Assembly (NCBI GenBank): GCA_964645795.1
Contig: CAZYCL010000002.1
Span: 272,352-336,351, forward strand
Direction: 5' to 3'
DNA: 64,000 nt
DNA from: an uncultured Planctomycetales bacterium
GTDB taxonomy: Bacteria > Omnitrophota > Gorgyraeia > Gygaellales > Profunditerraquicolaceae
Shown: piece after piece, positions 1-64,000 of the stretch
Numbering within the stretch: the stretch's first letter is position 1
Layout of the letters: each line of letters begins with the position of its first letter
Notes under the pieces: model-generated
Told to the model about the DNA's origin: nothing
The model's input: only the letters and a program-made list of their open reading frames with translations
The model's database searches: none
Made by a program: the position numbers and the translations under genes

Positions 1-720
1 GAACTTTTCGGAAATCTTTCTTTGGTCAAGTACTCCTTCTGTTGAAATCTTAAGTTCGTGCGTTTTTACGCGTGTTAGTTTGGGTAGTTTTGTTTGCAGG
101 TCAAGAAGATTGTTTATAAGAAACGCCTGTTCAAAAGGGGTAATGTCCAATGCGGAATATATTAAATCATTTATTGATATCTTTGTGCTTTTGGGAAGCT
201 GAGTTTGAAGTAAAATACGCGCGACCAAATCATTGCATTCTTCTGTTCCTTGAACATTTTTTGCCATAAACTTACGTAGTATTGTATAGAATGCTTCCTT
301 CTGATCTTTGACTTTGGGATACTGTTTATAAAAATTATCCGATACAAACCATATCAGCCGGCGGCCTCTTTCCATTAATCCGGTATATCCGTAAATACCG
401 TCTTCTATTTTTATCAGCCCCATGTCATTTTGTTTCAGTTTTACGACCTGAATTGTTACGATGCCTTTTTGCTTCATATAATTCAGCAACGCGTTTGCGC
501 TCTCCTTGATGCTGCGTCCGGGATTTTGCAGTGTATCTTTTGCAAATGCTTCGAGGTCTTTTTCTTTCTCTGTTTTGGCAAGTACTTCTTGCGCCCCGGA
601 AAGAATGACGCTTCTTGCTGCGCTTGCTATTTTATCTATTATAGTTTTTGCCTTTCTGACATAACTATTCTCAAGCAATTGCCCCACTATCTCATCAACA
701 ATAGCAGCATCAAAGCTGGC
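1..720 (-). other. module of unknown function (C-terminal side; runs off window edge)
   Basis: Verified translation ...NDMGLIKIEDGIYGYTGLMERGRRLIWFVSDNFYKQYPKVKDQKEAFYTILRKFMAKNVQGTEECNDLVARILLQ...; no family recognised. Confidence 0.4.
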
Positions 721-3700
721 TGGCGAGCTGGAGGCGGGATTCGTAATCCGTAAATCGTAATCCGTAATCGGTAATCCTGGCGCCATACCGACTACGGCCT
801 GCGGCCTATGGCCTAAAAACACCGGCGAACATATTTCCTCTGATTCTTGAAGTTTATCCTTAAACCTACAAATAGATTGAGCCAACCGGTGTCCTAAATA
901 ACCAAAGCGCGATTCTTCTCCGCCAATCACTTCTTCAATAATCAAACGGCCCGCAAGATCCGAATAAGAATCTATCCCGTAGCCGCTCCTAAAATCTCCT
1001 TCCTGCCTTTGTAATTTAAAAGATAGCAGATAATCTCCGATATACTCATCAACGTAAAGACCGCCCACTTTAAGCCTCTCGAAGAACGCACGCTGCATAG
1101 GCCTGTTGGCGGTGAAGGCCTTGAAATAAATCAAATCTAATTCATCCGGGAGAAGACTTAAATAAAGAGTGGAACAGGCATCGGCCTGGATGTAGGTAAT
1201 TTTATGTTCTTGCCCGGATTCTCTACCGGAAAACTTAACCTCGTAAGACTGAAAAGGACGTAGTCTCAATGGCTTGACGGAAGAAACGAACATGCCCAAA
1301 CGCTCCAAATCAGCCATAAGAAACGGCTCCACCCCGATCTGATAACCTTCTTGCTCGTAATACAAAACACCCGCGCACTCCTGGCTGCTTCCCATCATGG
1401 GCAAAAATATTCTGTTCTGGAGTTCATCCTTGATAAAACTGCATTTGGCCTGCTCCAAATAATCCCGTTTCATGCGACTGAAGGCATCCTCTCCGACGAA
1501 GAAACCGGAATCACCGTCTTTATCGTAGATAAGATCCTCTTGGCGATAGGCAACTCTGAACGGACGTATATTTATATAGTAAACGGTCTGAAGGTTCGGG
1601 AAGATCTCAAAGATGCGCAAATCCAGTCCGCCCGGGTAAGCAGCGATGCGCGGCTGGCTAAGGATATCAGCCGGCGAGCTGGCCAGCCGAGATTTCAAGG
1701 CTGCCCGTAGCTGTCCCAGTTTTTTCTCAGAAACATCCAAGTAAGGATCATTTAAGATTACCTGTGCTTTCTTAACTGCGCAAAGATCACGTTTCTTTAT
1801 CCCTTTAATGATATCCAGAAAGTAGTCTTCGAAATATTCTTCGATGAGAAGGTGCTCAAAATTAGCAATAATAACCGGGCGGTCCTCATTAAATTCCGCT
1901 ATCCGAAAACTCATTGATCTCTGAGGAATAGCATGCAGAAAATCAATATCGGCATAAACATCTTTTTCAATATCAACCAGAAACCTATCCTTGATTTTCC
2001 GGCCATGCGATAAAGCAAAATGCAAGTGAACCAGCCTGCCGGCGTCATTTTCAGCATCCCTATATAAGGTAGCAATTATCTGTCCTCTTCTGACATTTTG
2101 ACCCCCATCTACAAGTGGAACAACATGCGCATAGGTTGAAAATAATCCGCTTAATCTTTTTCCGTGCTCAATTGATATAAAATAGTTAAACGGCCCATTA
2201 TACTTATAAACTTGAGCGATCACTCCATCTGCTATGGCCCTTACCTTTGTTTCTGCTGGGAGACCCAGCATGATGCTTCCTTCCTTATTAAAATAGGCCG
2301 CCCAGTCGAAAGACGAATCTCGCTCGCCAAATAGGAAATGGCCTGCTGGACCATTCCAACTTACCCATTGCTTGAATCCCGGTATGGATGTTTCATCTAC
2401 GGGAGTCAATACATCCAGATTAGAAGACCATTCCATAGTATCGTAAGATATTGGAACTTTAGCGCTAAATTTGCCTACTCTGTATTCCACCGGTGAGCTA
2501 ACAAGCTCTAATCTTAACGCAGGGCTTCTTTGGGTTTCAATCATGACATTAAGCTCTTTTGATACCAGAAAATTGCCCTTCGCGCTCCTTATCAATTCTA
2601 ATCCTTCGAATAGCTGCTTTAACTGGGACGATTGAACATCAGCGGCGCCATAGTGGTAAGTATAATGCTGTATGTACTCTTGAAAATGAGGCTTGATTGA
2701 AACCGTATCGACAGCAGTAACAGAGGATCCTTTCTCTATATGAACTCGACCGGCAAGATTAACCAAGTACCAAAGAAACATGATCTTTGGATATTGAAGG
2801 CAGAGCCGGTCATCGTCCAGTTTGCGGCTTTCATCGATAATATTGCCATCAGGATATATCTCAAGCATTTTATTTACGTAGTTGACGCATTCCTTATCGC
2901 CCCAAATAGATCCTTGCGCCATAGGCGAACTGGACTTGCAGACATCAAAATAAACGCTTAGAATCCGGTAAGCGCGGTAGAGCTCTTTGGCTTTCCTTTT
3001 CTCCCGTCCATATTCCGCTATTTTATTGATGCAGATCTCTTCCAGCTTTCCTGTTTTGCCGCGATAGAATGAATCTATATCGATGTCCAGAACGCTGATG
3101 CTTTCAGCGATTATTCGGGGTATCTCCCTGGGCAGATTCATCTCATGATCCTTTAGATAGCTATTGAATATGGAATAATACGCGGCCTTGAGTTTTCGTA
3201 TATCCTTTGCATCTTTACTCTTCGCTATTTTTTCCAGGCACATCTCCTGTATAGTCTTCCTGCTGCATATTTCCTGAAGCATTATATCGAGACCGAATTG
3301 CTTAAGATTATTCTGAAGATCTTCCTTATGCTTGAGTTCGGGGTGATCCGAATATATCTGCCGCAATTCATTCTTTTTTGCATTAATCATATTTATTATT
3401 GCCAAGGCGCCCAACAGGATTATGGATGAAAACCACATGAGCGGAACAGCAAAAGCAAGATAACGTAAAACCGGATAAGCAGCAAAGAAAGTCGTATCGG
3501 CAAAAAGCGATATCAAAAATAAAGGCCCCATAACCGGCATAAGTAAGAATTGATAGGCTTCGCTCTCGACAATTGCCGCTGGTTTTGAAGCAAGTATTTT
3601 TACCAACAGTTCTTTTTCTCTCTTATGCGATGCCAAGCTCGATTTTTTGGGATTCAGGCCTTTTGTCGCCGGAGAACTTGCGTTATCTTGCGACAGTAGG

Positions 3701-6700
3701 CTAGCGCGTTTTTTTAGCACTTTGTCTAGATACTCTCGCCCATTTTCGCTTAGAACAAACTGTTTTCCATTGTGGGCCTTGATAAAATCTGCGTTTTCTG
3801 CCCTATCAAACGATTCTTGCCAATGCCGTCTGGAATAATCAACTAGCTCTATCGATGCGCTGTGAAGCGGACGATCGGGCATAGTTCTTGCAACCTCGAA
3901 TAAAGCTTTCCTCAAAATCGACTCTACATTCTGAGGCCCATGAAGCCTAATCTGATTAAGCAGATAATTAATTTGAAATTTTTTCTCCGCATCATTCTTT
4001 AGCGAATATTTTTTGTATAATGGCGGCTCTATCCCGATAATAAAATCCCGCAAGCAGTTCAGCAATTGCCAATCGTCTTCGCAAACTAAATACGGGATCA
4101 TCCCCCAAAATCCTTCAAATACCGGGTTCCCCAAACAAACCGCTATCTTGTCTTCCTTCATGAAACTCTCTACTATCTGGCTTCGCTCCGATATACTGCT
4201 GGTCAACTTTATAGAAGACACCGGGAAATTCCACAAAACTTGCCTTTGCCAGCGCAGCCACTCCTGATTATCAAAAACCATTTTCTTAAATGCGTGGCGC
4301 ACTTCTTCATCTCTATTGCGCTTTAGTTTAAAAGCAGCTCCCTCTAAAGGCTTAAATACATGTATGAAATCAAAATCCGGCAAATCTCGGCGCAAATAAG
4401 TGAGCTCATCGATTTCTTTGCGCATAAACCGCATTAAAGACAAAAATCTGCGTGCAAGAGGGTCGTACATATTGCAGTAAAGCTGCCCTGCGGGAATTAC
4501 GGCGCTAATGAAAGAAACGGCGGCAAGTGAAAGGCCGATTTGGTTTGAAATATTTAATACATTGGACCTCTGTGAATCATCCCAACCAAGTGCTTCATAA
4601 AACGCATTCACCTTCTCAAGCACTTCGAATCCTGAACGACTAAGATTATCCTTACCTAAAATATTGAATATTTGCCGCAACTCATGCTCATCAATGCTTC
4701 TTCCGTCTAGCAGTAATCGCTCTAATCGATTAGCGTCTTTTTTAACTCTCCGTCTCAATGAATTTGCAGCTTTGTACCTCATCCCGGATAAGGGAGAAGA
4801 CCCTAAGAGTACTTTGCGACTTTGATCTTTAAAACTCGCTGGTTTCCTAAAAAATAGGTGTTTTATATCTTCGGTCTGCATGCTCAATTCCCTGATAATC
4901 TTCTTATACTTGGCCCCGTCTATTTGGTCATAAATATTCCTCATCAAAGAAATAATTTTGTTTTTGTCTTTGGAGGCGATTTCCCGCGGATAAGCGATAA
5001 AGAGTCCGGCGATAGTAGGAATGCCCGCTCGATAATTAGGAAGGAATGAAATGCTTTCGTGCCTGCGAGGAAATATATAGAGCCTGTCGGATGAGGAATA
5101 AAGATTGAAGGGTATCATTTTATTTTGCAGAGCTCTGATTAAAGCAAAGGCATGATTGATTCGTTGATTGGGATCGCTGCTTTCAACCACAAAAACTATT
5201 CCCGGGTAGCCTTCTAATTCGCCTACTCTAGTGCACCTATCCACAAAATAAGTTTTCAGCGTTAAGTTTTCAATGGGGAAGCTGCCCTTAAAGAGCTGAA
5301 AATGAAGACTTTCGGGCTTACTGGCCCCGGCACCTTTTTGGTTAAAATACCATTTACTTTGAGTGACTTCGCTTATCAGCGTCGCCAGCATCAAATCTTG
5401 GGCTGTAACCGGCCTATTCTCTTGAGTAAGTTTTAATATGAAATGGAAACTGAGATATGGACATTTATTCTTTAGTATCTGATAGGGCATATTATGGCAT
5501 TTATTAAGATCGTAGATCGGCTCTTCTTCAGGGATAGATTCGGATTGGATTAACCCCGTATTAACTGAATTTTTCTCCATAACTTTTTTTACAAGTAAAG
5601 GTTGCAATTGCACTTCGGCTGCGAAATTTTTGTTTACCTTGACGGTTTTCTTGATAACGCTTTTGCTGTCCCATGATATCAGCCCATTATTTTTAGCTTC
5701 CCTTAAGGCATTTAAGATTACCTGCTTTAGATTTGCTGATTCCAATTTTTTTCTTAGATCGGCCGTTCTCGAAGCTAAAACCGACATATCCGTTCCTTCC
5801 ACCGGCGAACTGGCGATTTTTCTCCTCCGGTACCCTGGCTTACCATAGAAAGCCCACAAGGCATCACGAGGATGCGCATATATATGATTATTGCCTATCT
5901 TGGATTCAATGCGCCCGTCGGTTCTTAAAACGCCGACATGACATAATGTTCCATTATCATTGTAGTAAACGACCAGATCTCCGGGCTTACTTTGAATCTC
6001 GGAGACCACTTCAAAATTACTGTCGATGATATCTGAGATCTCTTTATGGTTGCCTACAAGCTCGGGATAGTAGAATGCCCTCGCGTAGCTCAGGCACTGG
6101 CCGGCAAAAAACTCTTTGCGCATGACAATGGAAAAGCCCGGCCTAGAACCAAGGGCATCTGCATGCTCAATGTTCTTTTGCGAATTAACCGTTGCTGTTT
6201 TCTCATCCGCCGGAGAACTGGAAAGCCCTTTCACAAAACCGATGTCTTGCGCTAAGTGATTGCGGGTGCCAAGCAATATTACCGAATGTTCCGGATATCC
6301 AAGAAACTCCGTTAACACCTCTGCCTTTGGCTTGTTTTCGCTCTTTCTGATCACTGAATTAAGCACTACGGCTATGCCTTTTTGATTTAATGCCGCAGCT
6401 AAATCGCGTTGTTTCTGGAATAGCCATCCGGGCATCTGCACCGCATCAAGGCCGTCAAGTAACCCCTGATTAACCGCGGCTTTCAGCACGTCTTCCCGAG
6501 AGATGGAAGCCCCGATATATTTGACTCCGTATAAGTTACCTTCTTTGATGCGGGCCATAGTATTTATAACCCGGACATCGCGCAATACTTCTTCGGTCGC
6601 CCCATGGATATAAAGCAACTCAAAATTACCGAGGCGCTGAAAGCTTCTTTCTGCCGACCGCATGAGGTTTTGGCAGGTATGGTCTATTTGCGATTTGCCC

Positions 6701-57700: not shown

Positions 57701-60700
57701 TTTATGAGCGTTTTGGGCGACTTGGGATTAACATAGCCTAAGCTTCTGAATTTCTTTATTAATTCAAACAGTTTTCCTTTTAATTTCTCATCGTTCCCTG
57801 ATTCCTTTATGGCGGATAATTCTTGCCTTGCCTCGTCAAAACCTATTTCGCCAAGAAAAGCATCCAGCTCTCTTGAAAGCACAGGAAGACAATCTTGGGG
57901 ATAGCCTAAGCTTGAAAGAAACAATGAGGATTCCGCTATCGAAGGTTTATTGTCTATCGGAGAGCTCCCCTCGGCCTTATCCATATCTTGCAGGAACTCA
58001 TCACAGAGGCTGATTACCTGATTTGCGGTGTATTCGTCGGTGTATTTTTTAGCCGTTTCCCTGGTTTCCTCAACATAGGCCCTGGCTTCATCAAAGCGGC
58101 GAAATGCGGTCAAGCATGAGCATTTTGTAATCTTGGCCATGATCCATCTGGCAGTTTCAGCCGGATACATCGGCCCAAATCTATCAAAGAACTCAAGCGA
58201 CCTTTCTGCGTATTTAAGGGCCTTGCGAGGATGGCCTAAATTCGCCATGGCAACAGCAATTCCCGCTCGGCACGAAGCGACAAATCCTGGCTTATCAAAA
58301 GGTTCTTTTTCAGGCAAGGATTCGGCCATCATTATCGCTCTTTTTAATAACTGGATTGACTTTCCCGGATTACTTTCCTTCTCCAATGCATTGTGCCCGC
58401 TTTGGAACGAAACAAGGGCATCTAATACCCGCTTTTCCACGCTACCGATAGGGCTGCTGATGCTACCATTGGCGCTTTCCAGGAAGTTGTCGCCGCGTTT
58501 CTTCGCTTTCCCGGACGAAAGAGGCACTATGATGCTGACTTTGGAACGGTTATCAATATCGTCGAACCTTAAAACTATGTCTGCCCTTGCCGCGGGGTCA
58601 TTTGTCATTATATGCCTTTCAAGGCCGGGCTTATATATCCTGTAATGCAACCTGCGGATATCCTGCGGCATTCTCCCCGCTATCTTCGTATCTCTCTCCA
58701 TCTTTACTTTCAATGATTCCTGGAAGCTTATCCCCAGGTAAATTGAAAGATCGGCGGGTATATCCACAATCCCCTTATCTGATATATAGAATCCCGAATA
58801 TATGAATATGGTTCCGGGCGTGATCACAAGCTGCTTATCTTCTGCAAAAAATCCTCCCGTCGTAACATCGTAAAGATTCCCCAAAATAATGGTCCCTTCG
58901 TAAGTGTTCAATATATTCTGAAAGTCATTCCTAAGCCTGTCCCAATCGTGCCATTTTAACAGGTGGGGTAAAAATCTGCCGGTTGTCATCTTCATGAAAA
59001 TCCCTGCCTCTTTGTTCCTTTTTACTCTGGGGAAATGATACCAATCTTCATTTATTTCAATTACACTCCTTCCCTTTTCAGATAATTTCCTTTTAAGAAC
59101 ATTAACCAAGTAGGTTTTGCCGGCGCCTTGTATTCCTTCGATAGTGACCCAATACTGTCCTTTTTTCTTATCTCGCCCTTCGCCGATCTCCTTCAGCACC
59201 ATATTAACAAATTTATTATAGGTGGTTCTCTTGGAACTGGCCTTCAAATATGCGTCATTATTTATTGGGAAAATATTGTGGCTTTTCTTGAGTTCGCGGC
59301 AAATGATCTTCTTAAGCCGGATTATTTTATCGGTATTAACCGATATGTCGGAAAGCTCCTGCAGTTCTTTTAGGGTGTGCCCGTCAAAACCTAAGCCTTC
59401 TATCGTTTTCCTGCTGTCTCTTACCGGGATGCTCACCGGTATCTGCATTTTCTCAAGCGTCGCCAGGATAGTAAAAACCGATTTTCCTTCAAAAACCCTA
59501 TCCTTTATCGGAAACAGGGTATCGTTCTTATAATTGACCAGAACGGAGTTGACCACGAATCCTCTCTCGCCTTCGAAGCTGCAGCTTCCTTCAATATAAG
59601 AATCGATTATGCTCCAGCCGCGCGGGATTACCATATCCTGACCGTTAAGCTCGATAACAACATTCTTCAACCTCACATTTTCTCCGAAGATAACCCTGCC
59701 CCTGCCTTTGATGATCACCCGATCAAGGAACGAAGACGCACCGTTATGCAGGAATACCCGCGAACCCTTACTTATCTTGTTTTTATCCGTTCGCACGGTC
59801 TCTCTAAGCCTGCACAGGGCTTCCGGAAGCCTTCCTTCATCCCTGAAAGATTTCTGGGATGCACCCTTTATATACGTGACTTTATTTGTATTTTGTCCAA
59901 GGCGTCTAACCGCTATTTTTCTCATGGAAATCCAATCGTCTTCACTGACTAATCCAAGCTTTGCCTTCGGCCTGTACAGCACCCATTCCGCTTCGCTCAT
60001 AAATGTGCTTTGAAATAGAGAAAAGAACATGTCTGCCGGGAAGTTGATAAAGCGTTCGCCCGAAGTCATAGCCCTGGATTTAAATTCGGATATCAAGGAT
60101 CTGATGAAATCTTTGTTCCATGCAGTAAAATAATGCAGACAGTAGAGGCGGCTATCCGAAATTACATCCATATATTTCTTGGCCAGCGACCTGTTTGGCT
60201 TTGCCAATAAGAGCTTGGCCTCTTTATTCCCGTCTAAAGCGAGAAATACCTTTCTGCTGAGGTATTTACCGCTTACCGGCACAATAGGCGCAATCAATAT
60301 CCTTTCACCGGGCAAATCATTTAACGGACTTCCGTTTAACATGGTCATATTTTCTGTGGAGAACATAATATCGCTGGCCGCGATAATAAGATTGCCGCTG
60401 CCGTATCCGGGAAGCTGAAGCATGAATGTCCCCGTGCGCAATAAAACCTCATGCAACCTTACCCTCTGTTCCGAATACGGTATCAGGCCTTCATAAATAT
60501 AGTTCAGGGTCAAGGGCATGTTCCTTATCTTCCTGCCACCGTCTGCGATCATTATTGTGGGGCTTTTGTAAAACTCCTCCCGCAGGGCCAATATGGCTTT
60601 ATCTACGGCGTTAAACGTGCTCGGCATGTCGTTAGAGAACTTGTCTATGTCTTCTTCAACGATCAGGATAAACCGTATATTACCGTTGTAAAGCTTGGAT

Positions 60701-63700
60701 ATCTCCATTAGCTTCCTTATATATACCGTCACCGCGTAAGGACTGAAATCTTTGATATTAATGATGGCGTTAAGCTTGAACAGGCCCCTGTCCACCAAAG
60801 CCTCAAACGTATCCTGCAGCTTCTTTCTGTCGCGTATGGTTTTAACCGAGAAACTCGTCCCTCTCTTGAATTTCCTCTGCCAGTTATTATCAATATCTCT
60901 CTTATACCCGGCATCCGTCGATTCTATAAGGTAAACGTTACTGCAGACCGCACGCAGGCGGTTGAATTTCTCCGCGTCAATGGAAAACAATGTTAATTTA
61001 CCGAGGGTGGGTTTCAGGTTCATAAAGACCGCCTCGGCTCCTGTATCGATAAGCTTTTCTCCTGATTCAATATCGGTTGCCATGCCTATTCTTAATATCT
61101 CCGGCTGCATATTTTTAACGATACCGAGGAATGCCGGAGAATCATCCAAGACAGCTGCCTCCTCAGGGGCAAAACCGCTTTCCTTAACGATCTTTAGCAG
61201 GTTCTTTGCTTTGTTTATCTCTATTTCTTTCTCTCTTCTCTGCTCTTTTGTCAACGCATAAGAATTAATGAAATATGACTTGATCCTGCTTCTGATAAAC
61301 TGACGCTTAAAGAATCCGGTCTCAAGGGCTGTATTGACATAAAAAAGAGTCTCGGGATTAAGGGCCTTGACGATATGCAGGAACCCCCGGGTATGAGGAT
61401 TAATGAATTCCAGAAGATTGATTTTTTCGAAATCAGCCGCCCTTAGTTTTTCAAACTGCCTGTAATACTTATCAATAAGAACCTCGGGGTCGATGCCGGT
61501 AAACAGCCCGTCCGCATTTGCCAGGCGTATCCCATCAAGAATGGTAAAGTATGTAGCCCTGCCGGGGAAATACTTAAAATATAGCCTCTCGCCTTCATCC
61601 CTGAAATGGTCTCCGGATTCCGGATAACCAGTATTGATGCCATTCCTTATCCTCCAATATACGGTCGCCGTAGCCCGGGCATAATAGCGAGGAGTATCGG
61701 CGATAACATTATCGAAATCAAAGACGAGGAGTTTTATACCGCGGCGCGAAATATTTCCAACGGCTACGACAGCATCGTAATCACGCTCATCCATGGCTTT
61801 TCTTAGAACTATTTTTGACTTTTCCTTTTCAAGAAACTCAATCTTGTCTTCAACCAATGAAATTAGTTCGGCGTCCCTACTCGGATCAAGCCCGCACTTC
61901 ATTCTTAATACATAATTAACGCCCATGTTTTTTCGCAAGCCTGTAATTATCTTCGCCGTTCGGTCATTCGTGTTATCGTAAAGGATGGCTGCCGCTATCC
62001 CCAAAGAATAGGCATCAGGATTCCTACCGTTTTCCATGATCAACTTTGCAGGCCCTACCAGACGATCAAAGCTCTTAAGTTTTTTCTCGGGATCACGCCC
62101 GACCCTGGAGATCTCATCAAGTATATGCTGGTCTAAAAAGATCTCAATAAGCGAATTGATGCAGATGTCATAATTTTCCCATTTCCCCATAAAGCCCCTT
62201 AGCTCTTCCCCTGCCAACCGGACCACTTTATATATCTCAAAGTCGCTGACCGCCTCATTAATGTAGCGGTATCCTTTTAAATAGCCTAAATACGCGGCAA
62301 TGGCGTGCAGTCCGTTATAGACAAACAGCTTCCTCTGCTTGAGTTCTGCAAGATTATCAACCGGGATTATCTTGCGCATATATTTAAAATCAGGCTTTAA
62401 CGCTTTCCGGTCAACAAATAACGATTGTTCAACGCTCACCTGGATCATTAAAGGCTCATATTCCGCTGCGTTGGGCAATACATTGGTGGCTATACTAAAG
62501 GTCGTGGTTTCCGCTATATTGAGAAGGTCTTTGGCGAGGTTGTAAACCTGCGCAGACATATTCTTAAACACTTCGTTTCTTACCTGGTGCTCGGTGTGCA
62601 TTTTGTTCGAGACGACGATTACACTCACCGGTTCTTTAAGGCCTTGCTCCAGGCGTTTTATCATCAATCTGGCAACCAAAGCCGAAGCGTCTTTTAAAGC
62701 CGTGTCAGGCAGGGCAAAAAATATCGTATTAATACTAAATATATCATTTACTATCGATTCTTCGTCTGACCTGTCGAATATCCGGAAATTGCCTATCTCC
62801 TGCCTCTTCAGCCCTTTCTCAGGAGCATAAATATTTACTGCATATTCTTTCTGCCTCCTTAGAGCTGCGGTCAGTTCAGTATTCTTGTCCACAAACATCA
62901 TCCCGTATCCGTTGTCGTCCAGGATGGAGCCGATAAGGCCCCGGCCGACCCTGCCTGCCCCGATGACAATCGCGCTTCGGCTGATGGACTGGCTAATCCG
63001 GAAAACCTTACGGAGTATCCTGCATGCTAGCGCGCCTGGGTGCAGAGTAACCGCTTTCTTTCTGCTTAAAAAATTATTTGAGATTGGAGAGGCGGATTCC
63101 TGCTTGGCGGCGTTATCTACCCTGTCCCGTTCTGCCTCCTGCGCTTTTTCTTCGTCTTCGATCTTCTTCAATCTCCTCTCGATCGCTAATGGATAAACAT
63201 TTAACGCGTAGCGCTTCTCCATGGCTGCGGCGGTGACCTTTTCCTGGGCAGCCAGATAAGAGGCAAGCATCAGTTTCTTCCATTTATCCTGCTCCTGGTA
63301 ATAAAGCCTTGAGATAGTTCTAAATATGACTAAAAGCTCAACCGGACCCTTGAGATAAAAAGCTTCGTGGTCGGCTATTAAATTTTCGTCAGTTTCGTGA
63401 ACAAATGGCCCGAACAGAAATCCGTTGCCTTCGCCTGTTTGTTCGTTATAAGGATTAATAAGCTCTTTTGGACCGGCTCCGTTAAGGCCTATGGTCACAC
63501 CGAAGTTAAGGGCAGTTCTTTGACCGGATGTTCCGCAAGCCTCATCAAAATCCCTGGGGACCTCTGCGCAGACGTCAGAGCCGATGGCCTGCATTTTAAG
63601 CAGCTTGATATCAGAATTAGGGACATAAACAAACTTTCCTCGTAACTCTTCCGTCTGGCTCCAACGTTGGAACTCTTCTACCCAATCTTTCATATACTCC

Positions 63701-64000
63701 GGACCGCCGACAACCACCTGCATACCAAGCCCGTTGACCATATCCCTGCCGGCAAAAATGGCCTCCATCACCCCATCAGCAATATTTTTAAGATTCCAGA
63801 GGTTCAAATTATATTCATAATCAAAATTCTTGATATCCCGCAGCCATAATGCAAAAAGCTGCCCTCTGGTGAAGGTGGCATCCCTTTCGGCGCACATTAT
63901 ATGGACTAAAAATCTTAACATAGGATGCTGGCTCTTGTATTCGACTATTCTCCTAACCAGCCATACTGTAGGCTTATTAAAATCTAGCTTTATCCCCGTT
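1..64000 (-). CDS. single giant multi-module ORF, partial at both window edges (>21,300 codons); mosaic of unrelated enzyme, regulator and structural modules joined in frame by SSP[VLAI] junction motifs
   Basis: Minus-strand frame with codon first base at plus coordinate 3k+1. Hand translation of about 3 kb in scattered stretches (1-1700, 5880-6120, 6780-6900, 7440-7800, 8280-8340, 9180-9460, 14220-14700, 15620-15680, 29930-30000, 35700-36300, 39760-39840 and others) shows no stop. All 57 located motif copies fall in this same frame. The ORF track has no minus ORF in this frame, as expected if the ORF has no stop inside the window. Confidence 0.8.
721..732 (-). repeat. SSP junction motif (PASSSPAS)
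   Basis: Plus-strand tggcgagctgga; minus-strand tcc agc tcg cca; in frame. Confidence 0.7.
744..777. repeat. imperfect heptanucleotide tandem repeat (cgtaatc-like, about 5 units) inside coding sequence
   Basis: Plus-strand tcgtaatccgtaaatcgtaatccgtaatcggtaatcc; encodes GLPITDYDLRITNP on the minus strand. Confidence 0.5.
1672..1680 (-). repeat. SSP junction motif (LASSPADI)
   Basis: Plus-strand ccggcgagctgg; in frame. Confidence 0.7.
1900..2350 (-). other. M23 (LytM-type) peptidase domain, C-terminal part of a membrane-anchored module (1681-3669)
   Basis: Translation of 1998-2100: QNVRRGQIIATLYRDAENDAGRLVHLHFALSHG (the G..G....HLHF signature of M23). Hydrophobic transmembrane stretch upstream at 3400-3560 (AYPVLRYLAFAVPLMWFSSI). 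Confidence 0.65.
3400..3560 (-). other. transmembrane helices, N-terminal part of the M23 module
   Basis: Verified translation AYPVLRYLAFAVPLMWFSSI plus neighbouring hydrophobic residues. Confidence 0.45.
3670..3678 (-). repeat. SSP junction motif (NASSPAT)
   Basis: Plus-strand ccggagaactt; in frame. Confidence 0.65.
5803..5811 (-). repeat. SSP junction motif (IASSPVE)
   Basis: Plus-strand accggcgaactgg; in frame. Confidence 0.7.
5812..6210 (-). other. CHAP/NlpC-P60-like cysteine amidase module (about 133 aa)
   Basis: KEFFAGQCLSYARAFYYPE (Cys) ... KPGDLVVYYNDNGTLCHVGVLRTDGRIESKIGNNHI (His), arranged like CHAP. Confidence 0.5.
6211..6219 (-). repeat. SSP junction motif (LSSSPAD)
   Basis: Plus-strand gccggagaactgg; in frame. 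Confidence 0.7.
6220..7014 (-). other. aldo/keto reductase (AKR) module
   Basis: Junction SASSPAASLYRNFGKTGLEFFVLGAGTIWFG matches the AKR N-terminal signature. Verified DGVIMLDTAAAYGFSEKRIG (DTAxxYG) and PEPEEIEDYLNIVFGRMANK. Confidence 0.75.
7015..7023 (-). repeat. SSP junction motif (SASSPAA), 3 aa before the AKR N-terminal motif
   Basis: Plus-strand gccggagagctgg; in frame. Confidence 0.7.
7024..7665 (-). other. P-loop NTPase, uridine kinase/phosphoribulokinase-like module
   Basis: Verified Walker A: AVGICGYPAVGKTTFSKLLVRSDVLGLSEDKINSYLEEDP, followed by VIVVEGVH. Confidence 0.7.
7666..7674 (-). repeat. SSP junction motif (MSSSPVT)
   Basis: Plus-strand accggcgagctgg; junction read through without a stop. 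Confidence 0.75.
7675..8475 (-). other. class I SAM-dependent methyltransferase module
   Basis: Verified motif I: MEGKYKIRLVELGCGDSDYA (8281-8340). No stop between the end of this module and the next junction (...NPLWTVVADKIMSSSPV). Confidence 0.7.
8476..8493 (-). repeat. double junction motif (SPVSSPVD)
   Basis: Plus-strand accggcgagctgaccgg; in frame. Confidence 0.65.
8700..9660 (-). other. ECF-type sigma-70 factor module (regions 2 and 4)
   Basis: Region 2.2: PQAANFQTWLYKIAYYTGI (9401-9460). Region 4 helix-turn-helix: SVITLRYFEGLSYKELAARL (9181-9240). Confidence 0.7.
9673..9681 (-). repeat. SSP junction motif (NTSSPVS)
   Basis: Plus-strand accggagagctgg. Confidence 0.7.
10870..11450 (-). 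other. K/R/E-rich low-complexity coiled-coil-like segment with 21-nt tandem duplication
   Basis: KLRIRAEIKKNNKSGQKGNN verified. Plus-strand tandem units ctgatgcggagcttatcttcc / ctgacgcggagcttctcttc at 10958-11010. Confidence 0.4.
11860..11868 (-). repeat. SSP junction motif (FISSPVG)
   Basis: Plus-strand accggtgaactga. Confidence 0.65.
11869..12507 (-). other. class I SAM-dependent methyltransferase module
   Basis: Verified motif I: KTVFSLGSGQGLELAMVAAF (12241-12300). Confidence 0.65.
12508..12516 (-). repeat. SSP junction motif (LSSSPVG)
   Basis: Plus-strand accggcgagctgg. Confidence 0.7.
13216..13224 (-). repeat. SSP junction motif (GASSPVP)
   Basis: Plus-strand accggagaactgg. Confidence 0.7.
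14200..14520 (-). other. cytidine/deoxycytidylate-deaminase-fold (CDA) zinc-binding domain
   Basis: Verified VNTVGTHSHAEIRLVFDILNK (H-A-E) and PCANCLKVILPLE (PCxxC). Confidence 0.6.
14683..14691 (-). repeat. SSP junction motif (KFSSPVK)
   Basis: Plus-strand accggcgagctga; flanks translated with no stop. Confidence 0.75.
14692..16284 (-). other. subtilase (S8)-like module with Cys in the nucleophile position
   Basis: Verified KRYRQATCFAAPQVAGVLLE (15621-15680); canonical S8 motif is GTSxAAPxVAG, here T-C replaces T-S. Confidence 0.5.
16285..16293 (-). repeat. SSP junction motif (GISSPIV)
   Basis: Plus-strand atcggagagctt. Confidence 0.6.
16324..16332 (-). repeat. SSP junction motif, diverged codons (AGSSPVG)
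   Basis: Plus-strand accgggctgga (tcc agc ccg). Confidence 0.5.
16333..17583 (-). other. module with radical-SAM-like CxxxCxxC cysteine triad near its N-terminus
   Basis: Verified KVNDYTLVPVWGCSTQCDHC (about 17140-17200). Confidence 0.4.
17584..17592 (-). repeat. SSP junction motif (DASSPLI)
   Basis: Plus-strand acggcgaactgg. Confidence 0.65.
18082..18090 (-). repeat. SSP junction motif (DASSPVE)
   Basis: Plus-strand accggcgaactgg. Confidence 0.7.
18091..19074 (-). other. HExxH zinc-metallopeptidase-like module
   Basis: Verified SFESSYCAFFLAHEAVHALE (18721-18780). Confidence 0.45.
19075..19086 (-). repeat. SSP junction motif (QSSSPAS)
   Basis: Plus-strand gccggagagctcga. Confidence 0.65.
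19777..19785 (-). repeat. SSP junction motif (ESSSPAS)
   Basis: Plus-strand gccggcgagctgg. Confidence 0.7.
19786..20781 (-). other. TPR-repeat module
   Basis: Verified GFAREAKAVFERIIGIDKENPVAHLNL; further TPR-like units follow. Confidence 0.55.
20782..20790 (-). repeat. SSP junction motif (AISSPLN)
   Basis: Plus-strand agcggtgagctt. Confidence 0.65.
20791..21468 (-). other. class I SAM-dependent methyltransferase module (HemK/PrmA-like)
   Basis: Verified SWAGYFMDKTVLDVGSGSGVLT (21281-21345). Confidence 0.6.
21469..21477 (-). repeat. SSP junction motif (RSSSPLN)
   Basis: Plus-strand agcggcgagctt. Confidence 0.65.
22066..22074 (-). repeat. SSP junction motif (NVSSPLQ)
   Basis: Plus-strand atggcgagctga. 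Confidence 0.6.
22075..22815 (-). other. HAD-superfamily hydrolase module
   Basis: Junction ALSSPVDYSALGNCSVKGIIFDLDGTLYDP verified (DxDGT motif I about 15 aa after the junction). Confidence 0.7.
22816..22824 (-). repeat. SSP junction motif (ALSSPVD), about 15 aa before the HAD DxDGT
   Basis: Plus-strand accggcgagctc. Confidence 0.7.
23377..23385 (-). repeat. SSP junction motif (SASSPAQ)
   Basis: Plus-strand gccggagagctt. Confidence 0.65.
23386..24561 (-). other. second HExxH metallopeptidase-like module
   Basis: Verified MELKRVFETAAHEEGHSLSACVLKVNEKNGDFC (23821-23920). Confidence 0.45.
24562..24570 (-). repeat. SSP junction motif (QGSSPIW)
   Basis: Plus-strand tgggcgagctg. Confidence 0.6.
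24883..24891 (-). repeat. SSP junction motif (FSSSPLA)
   Basis: Plus-strand acggcgagctgg. Confidence 0.65.
24892..25641 (-). other. second M23 peptidase module
   Basis: Verified IVSKGQIIGLSGRTGTNARRKLAHLH(FE) (24961-25040). Confidence 0.65.
25642..25650 (-). repeat. SSP junction motif (RSSSPVS)
   Basis: Plus-strand accggcgagctgg. Confidence 0.7.
25651..27456 (-). other. module with two von Willebrand factor A (VWA) domains
   Basis: MIDAS-like DxSxS motifs verified: FFGIDNSSS (about 26362-26385) and VTPRIAIIADESGSTSACSMAEQ (about 27160-27230). Confidence 0.55.
27457..27465 (-). repeat. SSP junction motif (SISSPVN)
   Basis: Plus-strand accggcgaacta. Confidence 0.65.
28705..28713 (-). repeat. 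SSP junction motif (TASSPIE)
   Basis: Plus-strand atcggcgaactgg. Confidence 0.65.
28714..29553 (-). other. polytopic membrane-protein-like module
   Basis: Verified AGAFVLIFLAGFVRLGVLIY (29281-29340), flanked by further hydrophobic stretches. Confidence 0.4.
29554..29562 (-). repeat. SSP junction motif (RGSSPVI)
   Basis: Plus-strand acgggagaactg. Confidence 0.65.
29740..29748 (-). repeat. SSP junction motif (PGSSPVI)
   Basis: Plus-strand accggagagctg. Confidence 0.7.
30367..30375 (-). repeat. SSP junction motif (FGSSPVS)
   Basis: Plus-strand accggcgagctg. Confidence 0.7.
30376..31641 (-). other. glycoside hydrolase family 77 (4-alpha-glucanotransferase)-like N-terminal module
   Basis: Junction LCSSPA...SYYGIGDIGIARKFVDWLALCGQNLWYVGPTA; verified GIGDIGIARKFVDWLALCGQ (31501-31560), which resembles the amylomaltase N-terminus. 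Confidence 0.5.
31642..31650 (-). repeat. SSP junction motif, diverged first Ser codon (LCSSPAN), before the GH77-like N-terminus
   Basis: Plus-strand gccggcgagga. Confidence 0.55.
32250..32500 (-). other. HD-domain phosphohydrolase resembling the RelA/SpoT (p)ppGpp-hydrolase signature
   Basis: Verified ISESRKDRKNPYISHPMEVAFTCIRDFGDKDFDTVICSLGHDV (H...HD). Confidence 0.6.
33607..33615 (-). repeat. SSP junction motif (PMSSPVE)
   Basis: Plus-strand accggcgaactc. Confidence 0.65.
35347..35355 (-). repeat. SSP junction motif (NVSSPVK)
   Basis: Plus-strand accggcgaacta. Confidence 0.65.
35360..35790 (-). other. rpiB: ribose-5-phosphate isomerase B (RpiB/LacAB) domain (C-terminal half of the same module)
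   Basis: Verified ALTRKSVIIGSDHGGFELKEGLIRYLSGRGHSI (35701-35800). Confidence 0.7.
35990..36540 (-). other. rpe: ribulose-phosphate 3-epimerase domain (N-terminal half of a two-enzyme module)
   Basis: Verified EGSLIDVHKMVMEPSEAFIQ. Upstream YILAPSILN sits about 15 aa after the variant junction TSSAV (36565-36573). Confidence 0.7.
36565..36573 (-). repeat. variant junction motif S-S-A-V (RTSSAVA), about 15 aa before the Rpe N-terminus
   Basis: Plus-strand accgcagagctgg. Confidence 0.5.
36660..37010 (-). repeat. internal tandem duplication of an about 70-aa unit (FLVYFIIDGVSQYPSEINSILERM / LLVNFIIDGSSNFPAEVNDLLEHM), with an 11-mer tandem repeat at 36706-36727
   Basis: Parallel peptide units read from minus-strand translation; ccgatttttgc x2 on the plus strand. 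Confidence 0.4.
37882..37893 (-). repeat. variant junction motif S-A-S-P-V (QSASPVQ)
   Basis: Plus-strand caggtgaggctga. Confidence 0.45.
37894..38694 (-). other. class I SAM-dependent methyltransferase module
   Basis: Verified LIFKKAIPMGITRGAKILDLAIGNGMI (38441-38520), about 60 aa after junction AGSSPVK (38695-38703). Confidence 0.65.
38695..38703 (-). repeat. SSP junction motif, diverged codons (AGSSPVK)
   Basis: Plus-strand accgggcttga. Confidence 0.5.
39430..39822 (-). other. CheY-like response-regulator receiver (REC) domain at module N-terminus
   Basis: Verified GSSSSPLDAAFKPKLVIADDDFYSRLL (39761-39840). The receiver domain begins 7 residues after the junction. Confidence 0.7.
39823..39837 (-). 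repeat. SSP junction motif (GSSSSPLD), 7 aa before the receiver domain
   Basis: Plus-strand agcggcgaactggaact; verified in frame. Confidence 0.75.
40543..40551 (-). repeat. SSP junction motif (SLSSPVI)
   Basis: Plus-strand acgggcgagctc. Confidence 0.65.
41182..41190 (-). repeat. SSP junction motif (EASSPVN)
   Basis: Plus-strand acgggagaaga. Confidence 0.55.
43360..43368 (-). repeat. SSP junction motif (KSSSPVD)
   Basis: Plus-strand accggcgagctg. Confidence 0.7.
43930..43938 (-). repeat. SSP junction motif (ASSSPLA)
   Basis: Plus-strand agcggcgaactgg. Confidence 0.7.
44806..44814 (-). repeat. variant junction motif C-S-P-V (GVCSPVI)
   Basis: Plus-strand accggcgaacaa. Confidence 0.5.
47521..47529 (-). 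repeat. SSP junction motif (FVSSPLP)
   Basis: Plus-strand aaaggcgaacta. Confidence 0.6.
48289..48297 (-). repeat. SSP junction motif (VISSPVT)
   Basis: Plus-strand accggggaactga. Confidence 0.65.
49402..49410 (-). repeat. SSP junction motif, diverged codons (EQSSPVI), end of paralog module A
   Basis: Plus-strand acgggtgaagactg. Confidence 0.5.
49411..49780 (-). other. paralogous about 120-aa module A (ERCGGHGWDEK ... IAVFIWRNNTG ... KLHESNSHTGRG ... ISEQSSPV)
   Basis: Clear nucleotide and peptide similarity to 53743-54111 (ggattcatgcagcttgattgacgatccggatttcaagacaaggcggatattgac versus ggattcatgtagcttgacttcctggccggattccaggacaaggtggatgcccac). Confidence 0.5.
50137..50145 (-). repeat. SSP junction motif (FSSSPLE)
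   Basis: Plus-strand agcggtgagctgg. Confidence 0.7.
51163..51171 (-). repeat. SSP junction motif (DVSSPLD)
   Basis: Plus-strand agcggcgagctga. Confidence 0.7.
51172..53088 (-). other. class I SAM methyltransferase-containing module
   Basis: Verified NDYKQRVLLDVGTANGDLL (about 52003-52058). Confidence 0.5.
53089..53097 (-). repeat. SSP junction motif (KISSPLQ)
   Basis: Plus-strand agcggtgagctta. Confidence 0.65.
53098..53715 (-). other. coiled-coil module
   Basis: Verified VKIEAIKIAKRIEELEQSLK; E/K/L-rich heptad periodicity around it. Confidence 0.45.
53716..53742 (-). repeat. tandem junction motifs (SEQSSPRGISSPV), end of paralog module B
   Basis: Plus-strand tactggagaggagatacctctgggtgacga. 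Confidence 0.55.
53743..54111 (-). other. paralogous about 120-aa module B (copy of 49411-49780), followed by tandem SSP motifs
   Basis: See copy A. Ends in ISEQSSPRGISSPV. Confidence 0.5.
54112..54120 (-). repeat. SSP junction motif (ALSSPVI)
   Basis: Plus-strand accggagaacta. Confidence 0.65.
55132..55140 (-). repeat. SSP junction motif (VISSPVE)
   Basis: Plus-strand acaggcgaactga. Confidence 0.6.
55850..56300 (-). other. LOG-family (lysine-decarboxylase-like/TIGR00730) Rossmann domain
   Basis: Verified [23 protein letters not shown] (PGGxGTxxE) at 55921-55990. Confidence 0.55.
56503..56511 (-). repeat. variant junction motif C-S-P-V (SSCSPVK)
   Basis: Plus-strand accggcgaacagg. Confidence 0.5.
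56560..57310 (-). other. TPR-repeat array with near-identical nucleotide repeat units
   Basis: Verified YKIAIGLNPDYLLLWSIGHC. Units repeated at 56821-56870 and 57131-57180 (tagccaaggcaagtccgagattattgtgtgc). Confidence 0.65.
57958..57966 (-). repeat. SSP junction motif (EGSSPID)
   Basis: Plus-strand atcggagagctc. Confidence 0.65.
58450..58458 (-). repeat. SSP junction motif, diverged codons (SISSPIG)
   Basis: Plus-strand atagggctgctga. Confidence 0.5.
58950..59200 (-). other. P-loop kinase (thymidylate/deoxynucleoside-kinase-like Walker A) in the long motif-free C-terminal region
   Basis: Verified GQYWVTIEGIQGAGKTYLVN (59101-59160). Confidence 0.5.
62880..62975 (-). other. NAD(P)-binding Rossmann GxGxxG motif
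   Basis: Verified IVIGAGRVGRGLIGSIL (62921-62970). Confidence 0.5.
63085..63096 (-). repeat. variant junction motif S-A-S-P-I (ESASPIS)
   Basis: Plus-strand ttggagaggcgga. Confidence 0.45.

Follow-up and report, generated by a model that had tools for sequence, protein, structure and literature searches.

The subject of this report is a stretch of 64,000 nucleotides from contig CAZYCL010000002.1 (assembly GCA_964645795.1), hereafter called the window, and the giant reading frame by which it is filled. The product of this frame is punctuated by the tripeptide Ser-Ser-Pro (SSP), which is very probably a marker of the boundaries between its modules. The best explanation overall, to which a probability of about one in two is given, is that the window comes from a mosaic giant of Omnitrophota, the modules of which are joined by SSP and made as a polyprotein that is subsequently processed. 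That SSP serves in this polyprotein as a lineage-specific processing site may be true, with odds that, judged from the sequence, fall slightly short of even. As a giant open reading frame (ORF) it is one more case in a class of thousands; what is new, and can be tested, about the giants of Omnitrophota is the junction code.

The motif bears on an open problem, namely whether these giants are single multi-megadalton (MDa) proteins or are cut, and where. The fate of huge proteins after synthesis has been called "still unclear" (PLoS Comput Biol survey, PMC11573180), and there was no information on the cleavage points of the giants, which prevented splitting of the proteins (West-Roberts 2023, 10.1101/2023.11.21.568195). 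No junction motif is mentioned in the two preprints in which these giants are catalogued (10.1101/2023.11.21.568195 and 10.64898/2026.06.07.730766), and in a literature search "polyprotein" was not found linked with Omnitrophota.

The giant reading frame and its relatives

Six-frame translation of the window gives no TAA, TAG or TGA in the 21,333 minus-strand codons that occupy plus-strand positions 3k+1 to 3k+3, whereas the remaining five frames hold 772-1,594 stops each (about one stop per 13-27 codons), with a longest open run of 188 codons. The original prediction of one stop-free minus-strand frame that crosses the 64 kb and runs off both edges, including the expected zero count in the frame of the codon at 721-723, is thereby borne out. 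The feature is an internal fragment of one giant ORF (positions 1 to 63999, minus strand, as are all modules below); it is open at both window edges, its true start and stop lie outside the window, and its N-terminal side is the right edge. Codon periodicity, which had likewise been proposed as a check, is of the coding type (position 1 rich in A and G, position 2 rich in A and T), and the GC content of third codon positions (GC3) ranges by module from 0.34 to 0.65 (chi-square 424, 59 degrees of freedom). Because the other frames average one stop per 13-27 codons, an open frame of this length by chance is impossible, and the frame is a real coding frame. Stop-codon reassignment was rejected as well, TAA, TAG and TGA all being abundant in the other frames and absent only from the giant one. 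The giant ORF does not encode a repetitive protein, since self-comparison yields only four weak paralogue pairs and the DNA shows no repetition beyond the 102-nt period of a TPR array. Embedded RNA genes were also rejected: the window contains no tRNA or tmRNA and no Rfam family at gathering score, nor any N.

An assembly or sequencing artefact, such as a chimeric contig or collapsed frameshifts, has next to no probability as the source of this frame. It could find support in the heterogeneous GC3 along the window and in a related contig (L053, below) with a probable frameshift that splits its giant ORF, but chimeric joins would not hold one stop-free frame over 21,333 codons. Moreover, the window has no long DNA repeat able to seed such a join (the TPR periodicity is the longest), and the same architecture is found in independently assembled contigs.

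Relatives were sought by an alignment-based scan of one genome per GTDB species and by single-protein scans of genome and metagenome contigs. No near-identical relative was present in the single-protein scans, nor in an alignment scan of metagenome contigs, and a query of 2,500 amino acids (aa) from the window gave no match at E <= 1e-8. The best relative found is JBAZJY010000004.1 (L001), a contig of a metagenome-assembled genome named "Candidatus Omnitrophota bacterium", in which all 19,394 nt read form a single stop-free frame with 23 SSP motifs. Its GT5 module is 66-70% identical to that of the window; the 51 Planctomycetota loci from the same scan fall far behind, at 33-38%. The motif is found also in an independent giant-gene fragment (L053, protein P0009) on a 27.7-kb JGI contig (3300037067, Ga0378408_0004253). 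This contig has two giant ORFs that share 64 nt (16556-16619) in different frames. The most likely cause is a frameshift, genuine or due to a sequencing error, within a single SSP-type giant gene; this gene fills the 26.6-kb locus analysed. Across the three SSP-type genes the density of the motif is 3.1-5.4 per 1,000 aa, and Planctomycetota homologues of the GT5 module have 0-1 SSP. The window carries no phylogenetic marker genes, and its probable placement in Omnitrophota is by the nearest relative found, L001, through module identity, motif and architecture. Other long mosaic matches are named Candidatus Omnitrophica.

The SSP motif and module boundaries

The tripeptide occurs 67 times in the ORF, compared with 4.4 on average, and never more than 13, in 200 shuffles. 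The residue that follows it is Val (31), Leu (15), Ala (10), Ile (7) or Met (1) in 64 of the 67 copies, and the residue before it is Ser, Ile, Ala, Gly or Val in 54; the flanks are otherwise unconserved, so that the junction consensus reads [S/I/A/G/V]-S-S-P-[V/L/A/I]. All the copies stand in the giant frame, as had been noted earlier for a count of 57, when the motif was used as a frame marker only. Each occupies 9 nt (consensus AGY TCG CCG, then GTN, CTN, GCN or ATH) on the minus strand between 721 and 58458. Listed by their low coordinates from the N-terminal side, they lie at 58450, 57958, 55132, 54112, 53734, 53716, 53089, 52948, 52897, 51304, 51163, 50137, 49858, 49402, 48289, 47521, 47194, 43930, 43360, 41182, 40543, 40396, 39823, 38695, 37927, 37306, 35347, 33607, 33184, 31642, 30367, 29740, 29554, 28705, 28156, 27457, 25642, 24883, 24562, 23377, 22816, 22066, 21469, 20782, 19777, 19075, 18082, 17584, 16324, 16285, 14683, 13216, 12508, 11860, 9673, 8488, 8476, 7666, 7015, 6211, 5803, 4792, 3670, 2923, 2491, 1672 and 721. 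Degenerate junctions are few (CSPV, ASPV/ASPI, SAPL); the CSPV at aa 6396 corresponds in position to a true SSP of L001, by which the GT5 module common to both is closed.

That the motif marks module boundaries can be said with high confidence, and the evidence comes from Pfam and NCBIfam scans of the entire translation, with domains reported at E <= 1e-3. Not one of the 67 motifs falls within the 4,131 domain-matched residues, where 13 would be expected (P = 5e-7). Full-length family models begin 4-19 aa past SSP, at profile positions 1-6: MraZ after 4 aa (profile position 2-3), the ECF sigma factor after 4 aa (position 6), DUF3856 after 7 aa (position 6), the CheY-type receiver after 9 aa (position 2), HAD after 10 aa (position 1), GH77 after 14 aa (position 1), the aldo/keto reductase (AKR) after 18 aa (position 3) and phosphofructokinase (PFK) after 19 aa (position 2). 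In families matched only C-terminally the offset from SSP is close to the missing length of the profile (aldose epimerase 99 vs 79, S8 97 vs 107, DUF7689 74 vs 59). At the other end of a module, the RpiB match runs to profile position 142 of 143 and is followed immediately by SSP. Many modules are end-to-end counterparts of complete free-standing proteins, among them enzymes of glycogen and sugar-phosphate metabolism, methyltransferases, HAD phosphatases, secreted M23 peptidases, an ECF sigma factor, an MraZ-like protein and a response regulator.

The same arrangement is seen in relatives. In L001 no SSP lies inside any domain, and the match to PFK begins, at profile position 1, only 3 aa beyond SSP (SSP-VIKRIGILTGGG). 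The window and L001 share four segments, each bounded by junctions in both genomes and arranged in a different order, and the units shared between giants are the SSP-to-SSP modules. An exhaustive HMMER search with the PFK module retrieved fragments of other long mosaics with 54-62% identity over the full 726 aa; the similarity begins no more than 6 aa from the junction at aa 6881 and ends no more than about 25 aa from the junction at aa 7604, and these mosaics share nothing more with the window, save one weak methyltransferase match. In one of them, P0020, which has no SSP, the Met at aa 357 aligns with the Val after SSP at aa 6881 of the window (KPR-M-NRRLQSFLRRH vs SSP-V-DRRLRSFLRRH), an alignment that would fit the PFK module having once been a separate gene.

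The motif is biased also in its codons. In the window the first Ser is encoded by AGY in 76% of the motifs vs 38% elsewhere in the ORF (Fisher P 1e-9), the second by TCG in 46% vs 12% (P 3e-11), and Pro by CCG in 67% vs 35% (P 5e-7); the copy at 43360-43368 is an example. Across the three lineages the shares are 70-78% for AGY, 46-52% for TCG and 57-67% for CCG, vs 36-40%, 8-12% and 31-37% elsewhere; the bias is repeated in L001 and in orf2 of L053, and hardly in orf1 of L053. The common bias is not explained by shared ancestry of the sites, the SSP-type genes being too diverged. Either the RNA or DNA sequence is selected (as a ribosome pause at rare codons or as a recognition sequence), or the junctions are continually copied from a template.

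A reading drawn from this bias is that the motif acts mainly at the level of DNA, AGCTCGCCG(G) being the joint of cassette capture or shuffling by microhomology or site-specific recombination, with SSP tolerated or secondarily fixed. The strong synonymous-codon preference in three lineages, the modules as units common to giants in which their order differs, and the spread of GC3 between modules are all in its favour. The reading is nevertheless quite improbable, because about one quarter of the copies use TCN for the first Ser, with other synonymous codons besides, and all 67 remain S-S-P in frame; for the same reason the peptide is certainly under selection. Furthermore, what limits the residue after Pro is its chemistry (V/L/A/I) rather than a particular sequence, orf1 of L053 keeps the peptide with little codon bias, and enrichment of the DNA pattern is confined to the giant frame, with 49 copies of AGYTCNCCN as against 3 in the other minus-strand frames and 5 on the plus strand. 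Selection on the peptide and on the nucleotides is not mutually exclusive, and a role at the DNA level is compatible with one at the protein level. The AGY-TCG-CCG bias could then also mark a cassette-capture mechanism by which giant genes are built.

In all three SSP-type genes tandem junctions occur, with spacers of only 1-17 residues (aa 3420-3428, 3682-3701, 8689-8706, 15890-15905 and 18502-18508 in the window; aa 3147-3155, 3279-3296, 3697-3705 and 4095-4114 in L001). Sequences resembling L(x0-2)GC[LR]xRGxF are common to several spacers and post-SSP module starts of the window and L001. The spacers might be mini-peptides set free from the chain, or traces of modules since lost.

Possible processing of the chain

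In the proposed mechanism, the giant chain would be made as one polyprotein and the SSP junction would be recognised by a putative site-specific endopeptidase. The cut would perhaps fall after Pro, Val, Leu, Ala or Ile taking the place of the former initiator Met. The modules would be released as separate proteins in fixed stoichiometry, after which any that bears a Sec or Tat signal would be exported independently. The AGY-UCG-CCG sequence with its rare Ser codon may slow ribosomes at the module ends. What would be looked for in a processed polyprotein, a conserved short motif between folded units and at the termini of free-standing homologues, was found in the window and repeated in L001 and L053. 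Cleavage is supported also by the tandem junctions described above, which occur in all three SSP-type genes.

Export signals provide a further line of evidence. According to transmembrane and signal-peptide calls from hydropathy and visual inspection, five modules open with export signals 0-2 aa after SSP (aa 12182, 12787, 14976, 15906 and 16929; signal-bearing stretches 24883-27456, 18082-19074, 14683-16284 and 12508-13215). The signal at aa 12182 is Sec-like (NRIK-AAVSVLLAGAFWAFTTSA). The next one, in the adjacent module at aa 12787, reads VSRRIFLIK, fits the Tat consensus S-R-R-x-F-L-K and is followed by an M23 peptidase. The signals at aa 14976 and aa 16929 end in ASA|Q and VFA|Q (AxA-type). 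All but the one Tat-type signal are of Sec type. Folded substrates are exported by Tat via an N-terminal signal, and successive export signals in one uncleaved chain would alternate its topology. It is implausible that a Tat substrate is embedded in a chain of >2 MDa. An ECF sigma factor, the MraZ-like protein and the CheY-like receiver are all embedded in this chain, and cleavage is supported because a sigma factor or an MraZ-like DNA-binding protein is unlikely to act while tethered.

These observations have to be set against the view that the chain is an uncleaved, membrane-associated multi-enzyme scaffold, in which SSP[VLAI] would be a hinge, a site of Ser modification (O-glycosylation or phosphorylation before Pro), a pause site for folding, or several of these. 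Such a scaffold is the default view in the literature, where the giants are membrane-anchored entities, and it agrees with the rare-codon bias, which fits pausing, with relatives that keep fused modules without the motif and with the lack of a protease candidate among the modules of the window. It is nonetheless considered unlikely. A hinge needs no invariant tripeptide with a restricted next residue, and because just these are set in unconserved linkers, SSP is better taken as a recognition site than as a flexible hinge. With five modules that start with export signals, two of them adjacent, a single uncleaved chain is hard to reconcile, since one chain cannot bring every one of several consecutive modules with N-terminal Sec or Tat signals into the periplasm, and it is hard to see the sigma factor and the MraZ-like protein working in a multi-MDa chain.

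It is barely plausible that the modules are made separately, by internal initiation or by RNA processing of a giant transcript, the long frame being incidental. The Val, Leu and Ile after the motif superficially recall GTG, TTG and ATT starts, but the usual start codons follow SSP in only about 10 of the 67 cases (GTG 8, TTG 1, ATG 1), while 13 are GTA and 10 GCN. Motifs of Shine-Dalgarno type stand upstream of 11 of the 67 junctions vs 12.3 expected. Internal initiation was rejected because of this lack of enrichment and the few start codons. The window has no Rfam match, and if the long frame were incidental there would be no reason for 64 kb to stay free of stops.

Several points weigh against processing at SSP. 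Leu is the residue after SSP at 22% of the sites in the window and at 43% in L001, and a cut before Leu would give N-degron-type termini in bacteria with ClpS. A signal that acts on the protein alone would not lead one to expect codon bias within the motif. Some modules may be without their canonical activities, given profile scores far below the family cut-offs. No active protease candidate is present in the window, in which Ser and His of the catalytic site are both missing from the S8-like module and the M23 peptidases belong to a family that cuts peptidoglycan bridges. Finally, the closest relatives of the PFK module (P0016-P0020) carry no SSP, as do several other long mosaics, so the motif is not universal and giants can exist without it.

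Two modules were considered as the processing protease and rejected. In the S8-like module the catalytic Ser is replaced by Cys (ATCFAAPQVAG vs GTSMATPHVAG) and there is no recognisable His motif; the module aligns only with the C-terminal half of subtilisins and is, by this comparison, probably a pseudo-protease. A DPPIV_N/PD40 match in L001, examined as a post-proline peptidase, comprises a beta-propeller only, without an S9 catalytic domain, and has an N-terminal signal; this module is more likely TolB-like.

Punctuation by a short linear motif seems to be lineage-specific, since the PFK relatives lack SSP and three mosaics carry a motif of the R[AS]E type instead. RSELR is present 8 times in P0014 vs 0.02 expected, R[AS]E[KRL]R about 22 times in P0013 (RAERR 6, RAEKR 4, RAELR 4) and RSEVR 4 times in P0060; each exact 5-mer is expected 0.01-0.03 times, and the spacings run from 65 to 1,700 aa. 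Two further proteins may have motifs of their own, P0011 (TFRT[SI]SEPS) and P0010 (KPxSPDMxKxKE). Cleavage is supported here too, because the alternative motif resembles dibasic convertase sites. It is proposed, more tentatively than for the window itself, that the mosaic giants of Omnitrophota might be mega-polyproteins with lineage-specific punctuation codes (SSP[VLAI] in this lineage, R-[AS]-E-x-R in others) read by dedicated endopeptidases.

If this were true, dozens of enzymes, regulators and exported proteins of ordinary size would be released from one translation product, and a single gene would supply much of the proteome in fixed stoichiometry. The motif gives exact predicted cut sites that can be checked by proteomics, a rational split of the giants into units for structure prediction and annotation, and a starting point from which the protease could be traced by phylogenetic profiling. 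Regulators (ECF sigma, MraZ-like, response regulator) and enzymes of central metabolism (RpiB, PFK) can evidently be encoded inside a giant gene.

Modules of the chain and known giant proteins

The giant product consists of about 70 modules with an SSP-to-SSP spacing of 242 aa (median) or 292 aa (mean), approximately the size of an ordinary bacterial protein. Pfam leaves about four fifths of the residues unmatched, and the majority of the module matches are far below the curated family cut-offs, the exceptions being RpiB (175 bits vs an NCBIfam equivalog cut-off of 139) and the superfamily model of ECF sigma (83 bits vs 43). The Pfam accessions matched include PF08323, PF00534, PF02446 (GH77), PF01551 (twice) and PF00082; at least four SAM methyltransferases and DUF4922 are among the further domains.

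From the N-terminal side, the first 1,850 aa (58450-63999) contain no strict SSP and one degenerate junction (ASPI at aa 303). They comprise a mannitol dehydrogenase (aa 343-685), an unannotated remainder and a part that may be the C-terminal portion of an alpha-glucan-phosphorylase-like protein, a reading of aa 1-200 drawn from visual likeness to P0010 only. Next come a DUF3856/TPR module of 164 aa, the TPR array and two LOG (Lysine_decarbox) domains (55132-58449), and an aldose 1-epimerase module (54112-55131), the domain of which ends 6 aa ahead of the next SSP. The only clear internal duplicate is a pair of modules of about 125 aa with 52% identity (53734-54111 and 49402-49857; aa 3297-3422 and 4715-4866), both copies of which end in ISEQ-SSP.

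The starch/glycogen-synthase-like module with GT5 and GT1 (1,088 aa, 43930-47193) is the one shared with L001. Its nearest relatives outside Omnitrophota (L002-L052, P0001-P0008) belong to a conserved "glycogen/starch synthase" family of about 1,840 aa from Phycisphaerae, Anaerohalosphaeraceae and Pirellulales, in which only the C-terminal ~800 aa match the window and the N-terminal ~1,000 aa are absent from it. The module is 35-38% identical to 1,838-aa Planctomycetota proteins, and a 2,833-aa query from the window matched only starch-synthase-like Planctomycetota proteins of 1,821-1,858 aa. The PFK module (726 aa, 41182-43359), kept as a whole unit in other giants, is followed towards the C-terminus by the CheY-like response-regulator receiver module (38695-39822), by ribulose-phosphate 3-epimerase (RPE) with RpiB (35347-37305, the RpiB ending exactly at SSP) and by the MraZ-like module (141 aa, 33184-33606), the score of which is weak (26 bits, far under the cut-off). 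An HD_4 module with 25% identity to L001 and a GH77 4-alpha-glucanotransferase-like module occupy 30367-33183.

The two consecutive export-signal modules, the second with an M23 peptidase, lie at 24883-27456, the HAD phosphatase module (250 aa) at 22066-22815, and the run of modules with signal peptides at aa 14976, 15906 and 16929 at 12508-19074. Within this run stands the S8 subtilase-like module (aa 15906-16439; 14683-16284), which is placed behind a signal peptide yet internal in the chain. The ECF sigma-70 factor forms the first 183 aa of the module at 8488-9672 and ends about 10 aa before the degenerate SAPL junction at aa 18302. The AKR module (6211-7014) and a second M23 peptidase module (1672-2490) are found closer to the C-terminal side. 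In the Kyte-Doolittle scan only 6-12 strongly hydrophobic segments were seen in 21,333 aa, several of them signal-peptide-like.

Blocks of low GC3 (aa 3702-5493, the TPR array, the ECF sigma module with 0.42, and the C-terminal modules) shift at or near SSP junctions; the regions concerned are 48289-52896, 55900-57700, 8488-9672 and 1-5802 of the minus strand. The differences in GC3 suggest that the modules are of different age or origin.

Giant genes of this type are well represented in Omnitrophota. ORFs >20 kb were reported in 77 of 116 Velamenicoccia genomes (Seymour 2023, PMC10066038), 46 genes >90 kb, encoding up to 85,804 aa and including "Archaeovorins" and a Dockerin-type group, by West-Roberts 2023 (10.1101/2023.11.21.568195), and 3,650 proteins of at least 10 kaa (thousand amino acids), 348 of them at least 30 kaa and the longest 147,155 aa, by Nielsen & Lui 2026 (10.64898/2026.06.07.730766). 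In the last catalogue a "multi-enzyme metabolic cluster" class is built from PF08323, PF00534, PF00072, PF08241, HAD and HD. The window, with a single ORF of 21,333 codons that surpasses the 20 kb of Omnitrophota giants, is very probably part of the interior of a genuine giant gene, 64 kb or more in length, belonging to the "Archaeovorin" or "multi-enzyme metabolic" class. The claim that it would be among the largest genes known does not stand, as the fragment of at least 21,333 aa falls inside the published range for Omnitrophota, and its content, first described as a completely different enzyme mosaic, is the repertoire of these published giants, which makes it a new member and not a rival.

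With the Archaeovorins (type Velamenicoccus archaeovorus LiM, 39,678 aa) the window has in common a giant single ORF, in its case probably of Omnitrophota, and highly divergent domains of the same set: GT5 and GT1, methyltransferases (at least four modules), a glycoside hydrolase (GH77), peptidases, TPR arrays and sugar-phosphate enzymes (PFK, RpiB, RPE, aldose epimerase). It differs from them as a fragment without SecA_DEAD, C39, NUDIX and HEAT, with few hydrophobic segments and with a candidate junction motif defined. Archaeovorins are described as having numerous transmembrane helices, a divergent SecA_DEAD domain, a C39 or S8 peptidase at the N-terminus close to a signal peptide and, as their commonest domain, HEAT repeats. 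HEAT repeats and NUDIX hydrolases gave no match at E <= 1e-3 in the 21,333 aa of this gene fragment (HEAT repeats are present in L001), and SecA_DEAD and C39 gave none within the window, outside which the N-terminus of the gene lies. The multi-enzyme metabolic cluster of Gorgyraeia is similar in that many Pfam families tile the chain and none is dominant (PF08323, PF00534, PF00072, PF08241, HAD and HD), and in nearly unique sequences combined with a conserved type of architecture. In the catalogue of Nielsen & Lui 2026 no motifs, linkers or cleavage are mentioned and the proteins are read as membrane-anchored entities.

Viral polyproteins, such as those with picornavirus 3C or potyvirus NIa sites, and the substrates of eukaryotic proprotein convertases offer an analogy, not homology: one ORF, many proteins and a short motif that varies with the lineage. 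The R-x-x-[K/R]-R-like motif of P0013, P0014 and P0060 would, in this analogy, resemble furin or kexin sites. The window is in contrast part of a bacterial chromosomal gene 10-100 times longer, and its processing is proposed from sequence alone. Very long bacterial ORFs are known also from giant adhesins (Chlorobium chlorochromatii, RTX/Bap-type) and from the NRPS/PKS megasynthases, unlike which the window is without tandem repeats, condensation or KS domains or adhesin repeats, its internal likeness being limited to the four weak paralogue pairs.

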